64,000 nucleotides of DNA from an uncultured delta proteobacterium (GTDB lineage Bacteria > Myxococcota_A > Polyangia > Polyangiales > Polyangiaceae). Below are positions 31,113 to 34,982 of the stretch, one piece after another. The stretch lies in the NCBI GenBank assembly GCA_963850305.1, contig CAWKKR010000007.1, forward strand, positions 512,001 to 576,000, read 5' to 3'. A model generated the notes under the pieces. That model was not told the origin of the DNA and searched no databases. It worked only from the letters and a program-made list of their open reading frames with translations. Positions within the stretch are counted from its first letter, which is position 1; the number at the start of each line of letters is the position of its first letter. The position numbers were made by a program, and so were the translations under genes.

Positions 31113-31538
31113 GTGACCATGACCCTCGAACAGATTCAGTCGTCGCCCCGCGTGTCGCCAGCCCCGTACCTGGTCCTCCTGGCGGAGCCCGATGCCGATG
31201 CACGGGGCCGTCTCGGCGCGTCTCTGGAGGCGCTCGGTCCGCACGTGGTCACGCACGTCGAGGATGGGGACGAACTCGAACGCGCGTTCTTCAACCGGGG
31301 GCCGTACGACCTCGTCGTTTGTCGCTCGGCGCTCGGGGCAACGAGCGGGCTCGACGTGCTCGCAAAGGCGCGGCGCCGCGGACGCCGCTCGTCGTTCATC
31401 GTTTACTCGTCGCTCGAGGGACCGTGGCTTCGCGTGTTCGTCAGCGACTCCGACGCGACCGTGCTTTCGAGTCGCGTGGTCTCGCTCGACGGTCTCGCGC
31501 AACTCGCGAAGGGCGTGCTCGACTCCAAGCGGTGGTAG
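31113..31538 (+). CDS. Atypical stand-alone receiver-domain protein
   Basis: VLLAEPD, VEDGDE, YDLVVCR, SGLDVL; the phospho-acceptor Asp position holds Arg. Confidence 0.65.
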   Translation: MTMTLEQIQSSPRVSPAPYLVLLAEPDADARGRLGASLEALGPHVVTHVEDGDELERAFFNRGPYDLVVCRSALGATSGLDVLAKARRRGRRSSFIVYSSLEGPWLRVFVSDSDATVLSSRVVSLDGLAQLAKGVLDSKRW

Positions 31539-31556: not shown

Positions 31557-32774
31557 TCATTGGAGCAGTGGGAACCGTCGCTCATCGTAGCCAAATTCGG
31601 TTGGGATGAGCTCCACGACCGTGTGAAGCGGGATGACGACGTAGGGACACTCATCCTGCGGTTTGCCGGTGAGATACCCGTAGAGCGCCCGTATCACGGC
31701 CTGGTGCGCGATGATCAACACGGGCGACCTCTGACGCTCGAGCTCCACGATGACCGGTTCGAGGCGCTGGACCACGTCCGCGTAGGATTCGCCGCGAGGG
31801 TACCGGTAACGGAACTTGTCGCGGGCCCGCGCGGCGAACTCGTCCGGCATCTCTTCGCGGATCTCCGGGTAGGTCATACCGTCGCACACGCCCGCGTCGA
31901 TCTCGTCCAGCGACCGCCAGGTGAACGCAGCCGTCTCGAGCGGCCCTGCGGTGGCGACCGTACGCTGCAGAGTGCTCGTCCACACCACGGGCACCCTCGG
32001 CTGTGTGCGAATGAAATCTCCGAGCGCGCGTGCGTACTCTGCGCCTCGCTGCGTGAGCGGCGGATCGCCGCCAATCCGTCCGAGCACGTTGAACTCACTC
32101 TCGCCGTGGCGCGTAAGCCAGACTGGTCTGTCCGTCGGCTGAATCTGCATCAAAAAGAAGACGAGTCGCGAGCGGAGATAGCCCTCCAGCCGGTTGACGA
32201 TGACCTGGCGCCCCATGTCGACGAGCTTGATGTAGCTGCCTTCGGCGTCCGAGACTGGCTCGTACGTTCGCTCATAGTGAGCGATTCGTGCGCGGAAATC
32301 CCTGAACGCCGCATCGCTGGACATGCCCTCGTAGTCGGGAAGTCCCACCTTGTTGCGCCGGACGTTCGCATCCACGATCGCCTGGTCATCGCAGATCGTC
32401 TCGACGAACATCACCTTTATTCCGGCTCTCGCACAGCGCTCTTGAATGACGGCGCGCCGGCTCCTCTCGGTGTTCGTGGCATCGTAAATGCCGACTTCGC
32501 CGCCCTGGTCGAACCACGCGAGGAGATCGTCGAGGGCTGCCATGGCGAAGGCTAATCGTTCTTCCTTCGTCGCCGCGTTGTCCGGCGCGAAGTACGCTGC
32601 CGGCTGCTTCGCTCCGGCGCGTCTACGGCGGTAGTCCCCGACGTTCACCCAGAGCGTGCGGTGGCCGAGCCACGCAAGGTATCGCTGGAGCTTCCGTGCG
32701 ACGAACGTCTTGCCGCGCGCCGGCAACCCTACCATGACTAGCGCCAGCTTCTGTGGACCGGGACTCGAGCTCAT
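31557..32774 (-). CDS. Bifunctional 6-phosphofructo-2-kinase/fructose-2,6-bisphosphatase (PFKFB-like)
   Basis: Kinase: MVGLPARGKT, NVGDYRR, DATN, FVETICDD, RIAHY, YIKL. Phosphatase: RHGES, RIGGD, WTSTLQRT, LDEIDAGVCDGMTY, YRYPRGESY, HQAVIR. Confidence 0.92.
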   Translation of the reverse strand: MSSSPGPQKLALVMVGLPARGKTFVARKLQRYLAWLGHRTLWVNVGDYRRRRAGAKQPAAYFAPDNAATKEERLAFAMAALDDLLAWFDQGGEVGIYDATNTERSRRAVIQERCARAGIKVMFVETICDDQAIVDANVRRNKVGLPDYEGMSSDAAFRDFRARIAHYERTYEPVSDAEGSYIKLVDMGRQVIVNRLEGYLRSRLVFFLMQIQPTDRPVWLTRHGESEFNVLGRIGGDPPLTQRGAEYARALGDFIRTQPRVPVVWTSTLQRTVATAGPLETAAFTWRSLDEIDAGVCDGMTYPEIREEMPDEFAARARDKFRYRYPRGESYADVVQRLEPVIVELERQRSPVLIIAHQAVIRALYGYLTGKPQDECPYVVIPLHTVVELIPTEFGYDERRFPLLQ

Positions 32775-32792: not shown

Positions 32793-34898
32793 CTACTCGC
32801 ACGCGCCGGCGGTGCCGCAAGGGGTACAAAGCTCGCCTGCGTTGCAGCCGATGCCGTTCAAGGTCGCCTTCACGATGGGGTTCGTGATCTGGCAATCCGG
32901 CAGACAAGCCCCGAGCCCTGCGGAGCAGCTCGGGAAGTTCGCCGTTGCATCTGCCACCTTCAAGTCAGGCATACACAACGAGCCTGCGCCGCAAGAATCT
33001 TGAGGGAGCGTCGACGCCTCGGTGGAACCGATGAGCACGGTCGGCACGCAGGTCCCGCGCGCGGCGCCGTTCGTGGCGGGGTAGGGACAGCACGTCGGAT
33101 AGAGGGTCTTGGCCCCCGCGGGCTTGTCACCATTGAATTTGCAGGCGCCGCTGTCGACACCGGTGACCGGGTCGTAACAAGGGACGCAGAGCTCGTTCGC
33201 CGCGCAGGTCTCCTCTAGCAAGGTCGACGCGGCGGCGGCCACTTTCGGCATGCACGATGGGAGGCACCGGGCCTCGAGGTTGCCGGGCGCGGTGCAGCTC
33301 GCGGGCTTTGCAGACGGGTCGAGGAGCGCGGTCGGCGCGCACACGAGTGACGTCCCGGTGCACGTATCTGCTCCGAGTTCCGCCGCGGTAGACGCCGCTA
33401 CGTACGTTTTCGGAACGCAATCCCCCACGCCGCCGCAGCAGGCTGTGAAGGTCTTCTTCGCGGCTTTCGGCGCGTCGCCGTTTTCGTCGCACACGCCGGT
33501 GTCCGAACCGGTTTGCGGATCGTAGCAGGGCGCGCAGAGCGTGTTCGCGGGACACGCGGGAGAACCGGAGTCGAGCCTGGCTTTTTCGGCTTGTATCGAC
33601 GGAACGCAAGCCGGGATGCAACGGCCTTCGGCGCCAACTGCGCCCAGCGCCGTGCAGGCCTTCGGCAGGTCTCCCGTGACGGAAAACACGTCGGGTGAAC
33701 AGAGCGACCCGCTCCCCGTGCACGTATCCTTGTCGAGCGACGCTTGCTCGCCTGCCGTCAGGAGCGTCGATGGCAAGCAATGTCCAAGTCCGCTACAGCA
33801 CCCAGGGAACTGGAAGGGCTGATTCTTCGGGGTGTCTCCGTTCTGCGTGCAGGCGGACGTCTCCTCGCCGGAGATCGGATCGTAACAGGGGGCGCACAGA
33901 TAGCCGCTCGCGCAGACGTCCTGGGGCAAACTGCTCGCCTCGGACGCGATGTCGGGCAAACAGCTCTCGAGGCACCGTCCTTCGCTGCCGCCCAGGGACG
34001 TGCAGATTGGCGGCTGGGACGTGCCGTCGCTCAAGTCGTTCGGCGAGCAGAGGTCCGCGGCGTTCTTGCAGACGTCCTTGTCGAGCAAGATGGCCGACGA
34101 CAGCGAACTCGAGGGGACGCACGAGCCGAGGCCGCCGCAGCAAGCTTGAAACGGGTTCGGCGCCTCGGTCGGCCCAGGGTCGCAGCCCTGATCGCAGGCG
34201 TGGGTGTTCGCGCCTGTCCGCGGATCGTAGCAGGGCGCGCAGAGATCTCCGGCTCCGCAGACATCGCGAGGCAAGGATGCGGCCTGAGACGCGATGCTGG
34301 GAATGCACGTCGAGAGGCAACGACCCTCTTCGCCGTTCACGGATGTACAAGTTGGCGGGATGAATTTACCGGCGCGCGCGAGAACGTACGCCGGTATGCA
34401 TTTGCTGCCCGTCCCGCAGTCGGCGAAAAACGCCGCGGACGCCTCCGGAACGAGGCTGGACGCGACGCACTTGCCGTTCGTGCAAAGCGGGAAGTCCGTC
34501 GAGCTACACGCAACGTCGTTCGACACGTCGAGGAGTGTCGCGGGCACGACGCAACCTTCTGCGCCGCCGCCCGTGCCACCTTCGGTAGAGCCAGCATCAC
34601 TTCCCTTCGCGACGACCCCGGAATCATCGTGCGCGTCCACACCCGCGTCGACAACCGAGCCACTTCCGGTCCCGCCTGTAACCGAGGTTCCCCCGGCTCC
34701 CGGCGGGACGCCCCCGTTCCCGCTCTGGCCGAGAGAATTCGTCCCCCCCGCGCCGAAGATGGCATTGCCTGCGTCCGGCTGATGCTCATGACCGCCGCTC
34801 GTGCTCGAACCGCAAGCGGTGACGACCTGGCCGCAGGCGAACAGGACAAAGGCCTCAAGAATCCGGATCAGGAACTTCGAGCCGATGAGGGTCTTCAT
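32793..34898 (-). CDS. Cys-rich tandem-repeat lipoprotein (four ~120-aa units)
   Basis: Lipobox VTAC; Gly linker; four units with E[GA]RC[LI]..C.P, C[AV]PCYDP.[TS]G and CC motifs. Confidence 0.8.
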   Translation of the reverse strand: MKTLIGSKFLIRILEAFVLFACGQVVTACGSSTSGGHEHQPDAGNAIFGAGGTNSLGQSGNGGVPPGAGGTSVTGGTGSGSVVDAGVDAHDDSGVVAKGSDAGSTEGGTGGGAEGCVVPATLLDVSNDVACSSTDFPLCTNGKCVASSLVPEASAAFFADCGTGSKCIPAYVLARAGKFIPPTCTSVNGEEGRCLSTCIPSIASQAASLPRDVCGAGDLCAPCYDPRTGANTHACDQGCDPGPTEAPNPFQACCGGLGSCVPSSSLSSAILLDKDVCKNAADLCSPNDLSDGTSQPPICTSLGGSEGRCLESCLPDIASEASSLPQDVCASGYLCAPCYDPISGEETSACTQNGDTPKNQPFQFPGCCSGLGHCLPSTLLTAGEQASLDKDTCTGSGSLCSPDVFSVTGDLPKACTALGAVGAEGRCIPACVPSIQAEKARLDSGSPACPANTLCAPCYDPQTGSDTGVCDENGDAPKAAKKTFTACCGGVGDCVPKTYVAASTAAELGADTCTGTSLVCAPTALLDPSAKPASCTAPGNLEARCLPSCMPKVAAAASTLLEETCAANELCVPCYDPVTGVDSGACKFNGDKPAGAKTLYPTCCPYPATNGAARGTCVPTVLIGSTEASTLPQDSCGAGSLCMPDLKVADATANFPSCSAGLGACLPDCQITNPIVKATLNGIGCNAGELCTPCGTAGACE

Positions 34899-34982
34899 CA
34901 CCAAGCAAGCCTCTCCAGGCTGCCGCGTCAGAGCCTAGCAGATCGGATCCTCACCGCAGACTGAACGAATTTTGCACGAGGC

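Follow-up and report, generated by a model that had tools for sequence, protein, structure and literature searches.

A myxobacterial member of the PFK-2/FBPase-2 family with conserved active sites, and class I fructose-1,6-bisphosphatase as its candidate target

Background

To our knowledge, fructose 2,6-bisphosphate (Fru-2,6-P2) is taught as a regulator of eukaryotes only. We describe a PFK-2/FBPase-2 (PFKFB-type) gene in an uncultured bacterium of the family Polyangiaceae, phylum Myxococcota. With mammalian PFKFB1-4 (PDB 1k6m, 1bif, 2axn/2dwo and 5htk) the encoded protein shares the domain order, the fold (TM 0.92-0.95), 44-47% identity and 20/20 scored active-site residues. Unlike them, it has no N- or C-terminal regulatory tails, its host has no eukaryote-type PFK-1, and it is known here from its sequence and a structural model. 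The highest eukaryotic identities (50-54%) are to plant F2KP and dictyostelid PFK-2/FBPase-2. However, these carry 130-350 extra N-terminal residues, often including a CBM20 domain, that our protein lacks, and the trees give no support for placing them as sisters of the bacterial proteins.

A published bacterial exception, for either the enzyme or the metabolite, is the PFK-2/FBPase-2 homolog of Desulfovibrio desulfuricans, which belongs to another phylum (Rider et al. 2004, as cited in the accessible part of a 2022 paper, PMC9721465). Much closer are proteins of Polyangiaceae, Sorangium and other Myxococcota that NCBI annotates as PFK-2/FBPase-2. They belong to the same family, the named Polyangiaceae and Sorangiineae proteins being 63-80% identical to ours, but their names are automatic only.

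Domains and active sites

The window, i.e., the whole stretch of 64,000 nucleotides that was analyzed, contains the gene and its parts at the following positions:

31557..32774, minus strand: PFK-2/FBPase-2 (PFKFB-type) gene; 405 aa, ATG start, uninterrupted open reading frame
32133..32753, minus strand: 6-phosphofructo-2-kinase domain, residues 8-214 (Pfam PF01591 and alignment to duck PFKFB3)
32706..32729, minus strand: P-loop GLPARGKT, residues 16-23 (from the sequence)
31596..32123, minus strand: fructose-2,6-bisphosphatase (histidine phosphatase) domain, residues 218-393 (Pfam PF00300 and identity to the rat liver FBPase-2 domain)
32103..32111, minus strand: RHG motif with phospho-acceptor His223 (from the sequence; role of the histidine from PMC9721465, accessible part)

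In Pfam searches, an N-terminal 6PF2K kinase domain (residues 8-214; E = 1.5e-70, 237 bits versus a cut-off of 27) is fused to a C-terminal His_Phos_1 domain (residues 218-393; E = 1.1e-40, far above the cut-off). A reading of this DNA from its sequence only had proposed a single 405-aa polypeptide carrying both halves, and the profile search bears this out. All motifs quoted in that reading are present in the translation: GLPARGKT, NVGDYRR, DATN, RHGES, LDEIDAGVCDGMTY, YRYPRGESY and HQAVIR. The best 12 PDB sequence matches are all mammalian PFKFB (E = 1e-113 to 1e-109, residues 10-396). An AlphaFold2 model built from a 14-row alignment has a mean pLDDT of 92 and a pTM of 0.88, and its best 26 Foldseek matches are all full-length PFKFB chains at the TM values given above (0.94 to human PFKFB3).

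The phosphatase half is 54-55% identical to the rat liver FBPase-2 domain, versus 20-30% to bacterial PhoE, CobC and PspA. These proteins share the RHG histidine phosphatase fold, but they are single-domain proteins, whereas ours is fused to a kinase. In the Foldseek list they cover the C-terminal half only. NCBIfam phosphatase and mutase models gave 14 weak matches, none of which reached its cut-off (the best, TIGR03162, scored 90.9 bits versus 162.9).

Active sites were scored at nine kinase and 11 phosphatase positions, with duck PFKFB3 (P0154) as the reference. All nine kinase residues (K22, R50, R73, D98, T100, R107, K142, R163 and Y167) are identical, as are all 11 phosphatase residues (R222, H223, N229, R271, E291, Y302, R316, K320, Y331, H357 and R362); R49 of the kinase domain is likewise kept. 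In PFKFB, the kinase site presumably uses a P-loop lysine, the Mg-binding aspartate of DATN, arginines that bind fructose-6-phosphate (F6P) and a catalytic lysine. In the phosphatase site, we take the second histidine, the glutamate and the Arg, Lys and Tyr residues that bind phosphate or sugar to be the relevant ones. Where our protein has R271, human PFKFB3 has serine. We assume that arginine at this position marks a competent phosphatase and that the serine causes the weak phosphatase of human PFKFB3. The histidine of the RHG motif has a catalytic role (PMC9721465, accessible part). Together, the Pfam domains, the fold and the 20 scored residues uphold the original assignment to the PFKFB family with intact active sites. 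In the alignment, the protein consists of the catalytic core only, without terminal regulatory extensions.

These residues are also kept in the bacterial relatives. Among the 111 rows of the bacterial group in our FastTree phylogeny, which include close kin and come from a sample in which every sixth of the first 120 homologs was kept, 108 have all kinase residues, 105 have all phosphatase residues and 102 have both sets. The P-loop K22 and the arginine at the R271 position occur in all 111, and the median pairwise identity is 55%. On the eukaryotic side, 95 of 154 rows keep both sets. The conservation of both sets in the bacterial rows points to selection on both activities.

Genomic context

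The gene is native to its host, as judged by its codon usage and gene order. Its GC3 of 0.80 lies within the range of seven neighboring genes (0.73-0.83), in agreement with the host-like GC3 and lack of introns noted from the sequence. There is one PFKFB gene in the host genome (6.26 Mb in 11 contigs, 94.8% complete, 1.6% contamination), and a search against plasmids gave zero matches at E = 1e-20. Two neighbors are relevant to the comparison with other genomes:

31113..31538, plus strand: degenerate stand-alone receiver-like gene, 141 aa, convergent to the PFKFB gene (weak PF00072 match, below the cut-off)
32793..34904, minus strand: Cys-rich repeat protein, 703 aa, with a lipoprotein-like start (homolog upstream in loci L001 and L006)

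We compared eight related loci from named genomes, five in Polyangiaceae and three in Acidobacteriota. Four of the five Polyangiaceae loci (L001, L003, L004 and L005) have a common order: PFKFB, the receiver-like gene in the same convergent position, then glutathione peroxidase and MepA. The fifth contig stops 0.8 kb past the PFKFB gene. The window keeps this order of receiver-like gene, glutathione peroxidase and MepA, with a CoA-transferase inserted between them. On the other side, the Cys-rich gene ends 18 bases upstream of the PFKFB gene on the same strand, and the two are possibly co-transcribed; Pfam and NCBIfam searches with the 703-aa protein gave zero matches.

A conserved sugar-metabolism operon is ruled out, given that none of 119 neighboring ORFs scanned, in flanks that mostly span only 1.5 kb, is a glycolytic gene. 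Among the 30 loci fetched in the phylum survey, a class II DAHP synthase lies downstream in three and a phosphate transporter in three, in each case within one family. In six loci of another family, f23 (L021, L025, L027, L035, L040 and L044), the position directly upstream of PFKFB, on the same strand, is taken by a conserved gene with no Pfam match and a length of 490 codons or more.

Distribution in bacteria

In the host's phylum, a survey of 401 genomes gave PF01591 matches in 82 (75 of these among the 340 of high quality), each with one copy and no internal stops. The matches fall in 13 of 70 families. Their frequency varies among families: the gene is present in 10 of the 29 other genomes of the host's family and in 28 of 29 in family f23, and in 0 of 34 in f20 and 0 of 23 in f2. 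Each of the 30 fetched loci encodes both domains in full, at 53-65% identity, and a protein search returned 119 relatives at 63-85% identity. The nearest ESM Atlas cluster is mostly bacterial, with Myxococcota as its commonest members. In a search from a low-GC relative, all named matches carry labels of Myxococcota or broad labels of Proteobacteria or Deltaproteobacteria. None of 14 control genomes has a PF01591 match.

Three Acidobacteriota copies nest within the Polyangiaceae group in the trees, and none of 200 further Acidobacteriota genomes has PF01591. These copies thus look like sporadic transfers from Polyangiaceae, and, over the genomes searched, Acidobacteriota are rejected as a second home of the family.

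The name “6-phosphofructo-2-kinase/fructose-2,6-bisphosphatase” is already attached by NCBI to proteins of Polyangiaceae, Polyangium and Sorangium, and Sorangium cellulosum is a cultured carrier of the gene. In the available supplement of PMC11976288, bacterial members make up 13.6% of KEGG K19028. The rarity in bacteria that the sequence-only reading implied must therefore be abandoned, given the 82 carrier genomes, the existing NCBI names and the Desulfovibrio exception in print. The gene of the window is an ordinary member of a known family, in a bacterial branch that is widespread and annotated, though apparently unassayed.

Our literature search, from which the comma-bearing name of the metabolite was effectively excluded, found no functional study of a myxobacterial PFK-2/FBPase-2. 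Bacterial PFKFB is absent from the accessible main text of PMC11976288, of the preprint 10.64898/2026.05.08.723234 and of PMC12965863, and PFKFB terms are absent from the readable supplements of PMC13468126 and PMC12872458. The “PFK2” in the accessible part of PMC11976288 was considered and rejected as a PFKFB, as it is a pfkA paralog (K00850). What is added here is the co-occurrence with class I fructose-1,6-bisphosphatase (FBPase I), with its control and exceptions, and the cultured carrier.

Phylogeny

The bacterial proteins lie outside the animal, fungal and green-plant groups, apparently at a deep radiation without a resolved order. In a FastTree phylogeny of 273 rows, the 111 bacterial rows group together (SH 91). 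In an IQ-TREE mixture-model tree of 80 rows, the 28 bacterial rows lie on one side of a branch with an SH of only 36, and 26 of them form a group at 87. In a careful tree of 44 rows, 12 of the 14 bacterial rows are together (94/73) and two lie outside at unsupported nodes; two groups are free of bacteria, animals with fungi (99/96) and green plants (100/98). Bacterial monophyly appears in 0 of 200 bootstrap trees of the 44 rows, and the AU test (p = 0.41) gives no ground for rejecting it. Some eukaryotic rows in these trees are named and the rest were labeled eukaryotic by clustering and length, and both IQ-TREE runs left out viral and incomplete rows. All trees are unrooted, because a search of the host genome for an outgroup turned up no kinase and just three further weak histidine phosphatases.

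The sequence-only reading had proposed a phylogeny against eukaryotic PFKFB, and had pointed to a bacterial origin of PFKFB or a transfer from eukaryotes. Our trees answer this in part: they do not support animals, fungi or green plants as the source of a recent transfer, but unrooted trees do not give the direction of an early one. The bacterial lineages are as deep as eukaryotic supergroups, and none of the eukaryotic groups has support as their sister; this is compatible with an origin in Myxococcota. Sterol and plasmalogen genes of eukaryotes have been credited to myxobacteria. Myxococcota is a frequent sister of lipid genes of LECA (the last common ancestor of eukaryotes) in the accessible part of the preprint 10.64898/2026.05.08.723234. 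A farther-reaching idea is that Fru-2,6-P2 signaling is ancestral and still active in many Myxococcota, where it brakes FBPase I, and that eukaryotes obtained PFKFB from Myxococcota before LECA. We regard this as speculative and rather unlikely to hold in full.

Related genes also occur in giant-virus metagenome-assembled genomes (GVMAG records). Seven loci (L125-L131) encode full-length homologs of PFK-2/FBPase-2 at 35-37% identity, with a GC content of 21-26%. The giant-virus copies group with P0234 (SH 97); all kinase residues are present in 8/8 rows and all phosphatase residues in 7/8. In nine further loci (L132-L140) the FBPase-2-like domain stands alone; L141 is split. The enzyme name PFK-2/FBPase-2 was not found in the giant-virus literature searched. 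These copies, in putative bins, could be a means of host metabolic reprogramming.

Candidate receivers of the signal

Of the eukaryotic Fru-2,6-P2 circuit, the host has FBPase I but lacks the double-length PFK-1 that is activated by Fru-2,6-P2. Its three pfk loci are all single-length bacterial types, namely a group III-like gene, a clade-X ATP-PFK (NF005301, above the cut-off) and a divergent one, and they score 51-128 bits with the eukaryote-type model TIGR02478, versus a cut-off of 708. The sequence-only reading had named PFK-1 as a eukaryotic target of Fru-2,6-P2 and the host PFK as one to examine, but because the host has bacterial-type PFKs only, PFK-1-type activation by Fru-2,6-P2 is unlikely. 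The eukaryotic site for Fru-2,6-P2 lies in, or comes from, the duplicated half of PFK-1 (review PMC12203962, accessible part).

Two of these loci have features of their own. The group III-like pfk (G000:C4:544452-545361; L009:1471-2560) has a one-base frameshift near L009:2165 and is either a pseudogene or an assembly error. The divergent protein of 403 aa (G000:C8:442158-442925; L011:1408-2619) carries GGNG and VSIDND where the usual motifs would be expected and is below all NCBIfam cut-offs.

The host has one copy of FBPase I (NF006778, 438 bits versus a cut-off of 368 in NCBIfam), which adjoins a class I aldolase gene and has the E. coli enzyme as its closest match. E. coli FBPase I is inhibited by Fru-2,6-P2. 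The accessible part of PMC5639204 gives Fru-2,6-P2 as a competitive active-site inhibitor of mammalian FBPases, with a Ki of 0.2-0.5 uM, and of the Leishmania enzyme, with a Ki of 1.9 uM. Since the inhibitor occupies the substrate site, the conservation of that site in FBPase I is not specific evidence.

Among the same 401 genomes, FBPase I was found in 74 of 82 PFKFB carriers (90%) versus 138 of 319 non-carriers (43%). Counted by family, PFKFB occurs in 12 of 45 families with FBPase I versus 1 of 25 without it (p = 0.024), and in the host's family alone the link is not significant (11/0 versus 13/6, p = 0.061); these statistics ignore genome size as well as kinship, and kin are not independent. 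As a control, clade-X PFK goes in the opposite direction (9 of 82 carriers versus 62 of 319 non-carriers), and for lack of co-occurrence it was ruled out as a partner of PFKFB. All three Acidobacteriota genomes with a transferred PFKFB also have FBPase I. The 138 genomes with FBPase I and no PFKFB imply that FBPase I does not need PFKFB.

Eight of the 82 carriers have no match to the FBPase I profile. Five of them (93-96% complete) were searched again, with zero matches to class I, GlpX or PF01950; three have a PPi-type PFK and in two no PFK was seen. The five include all three carriers of one genus, g105 (G074, G089 and G144; 94-95% complete), which have PFKFB and no FBPase I, GlpX or PF01950 match; two of the three have a PPi-type PFK.

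Proposed function and alternatives

Our proposal is that the protein comes from an old branch of the PFK-2/FBPase-2 family in Myxococcota and would work like the eukaryotic enzyme. The N-terminal domain would phosphorylate F6P at C2 using ATP, and the C-terminal domain would hydrolyze Fru-2,6-P2 via phospho-His223. Without regulatory tails, the level of Fru-2,6-P2 would follow the levels of substrates and effectors (F6P, ATP and Pi) and not hormone-type phosphorylation. The likeliest receiver would be the host's FBPase I, inhibited competitively at its active site. This would shut gluconeogenesis and the futile cycle between F6P and fructose-1,6-bisphosphate when hexose phosphate is plentiful.

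Taken as a whole, this reading, in which PFKFB makes and hydrolyzes Fru-2,6-P2 with FBPase I as the likeliest target, is one that we moderately favor. Its parts differ in strength. It is quite likely that the enzyme has the proposed activity, and the presence of the metabolite in host cells is plausible. That FBPase I is the main target, considered on its own, is slightly worse than an even bet. Activity is something that we infer, because two-domain fungal PFKFB paralogs proved to be monofunctional or inactive in assays (PMC9721465, accessible part).

The same chemistry might serve another receiver, such as a PFK (group III or PPi-type), pyruvate kinase or a regulator that binds sugar phosphates. 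The five re-searched carriers without FBPase I, GlpX or PF01950 all keep an intact PFKFB match, and three of them have PPi-type PFKs, a type of enzyme that in plants is activated by Fru-2,6-P2 (PMC12203962, accessible part). However, the same accessible text describes every characterized bacterial PPi-PFK as non-allosteric and knows of no activator of the T. brucei PFK other than AMP, and the origin of the PFK-1 site in a duplicated half counts against a host without any double-length PFK. Pyruvate kinase is a receiver of Fru-2,6-P2 in trypanosomatids, but the host's pyruvate kinase is closest to those of Firmicutes and E. coli. We see another receiver as improbable, yet worth keeping in mind. 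The host also has a second, divergent pyruvate-kinase-like match (G000:C8:918347-919651; L144 and L145); it lies in an open frame of 694 aa that contains a long insertion.

It is also conceivable, but we think doubtful, that the substrate is a different sugar phosphate, e.g., a heptulose or other ketose phosphate, or that the protein has a single working domain and serves as a repair kinase or phosphatase. The lack of a conserved glycolytic neighborhood fits this idea, as do the DAHP synthase and phosphate transporter genes, each in three of 30 loci and within a single family, and the monofunctional fungal proteins are a precedent for one active domain (PMC9721465, accessible part). By contrast, 102 of 111 rows retain the substrate-binding residues of the kinase and of the phosphatase alike, and the identity of the phosphatase half to FBPase-2 is twice that to the broad-specificity phosphatases of bacteria. 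A recent transfer from a eukaryote, contamination or a chimeric contig might be suggested by the identity of 46-53% to enzymes of animals, plants and amoebozoans. This explanation is extremely improbable: the gene is intron-free with the GC3 of its host and the gene order of four of five Polyangiaceae loci, it has 119 relatives at 63-85% identity and occurs in 13 families of the phylum, and the bacterial proteins lie outside well-supported animal, fungal and green-plant groups. Synteny and spread across the phylum refute a recent transfer or chimera at the PFKFB locus and rule out contamination, so the contig is bacterial, as originally supposed.

Conclusions

Roughly a fifth of the sampled genomes of the phylum carry this strictly conserved bifunctional enzyme, and one carrier is cultured, which makes the use of this signal by bacteria directly testable. 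The same is true of the question of whether Fru-2,6-P2 first braked FBPase, before eukaryotic PFK-1 gained its site for this metabolite. The myxobacterial branch of the family also bears on the debated share of Myxococcota in the origin of eukaryotes.
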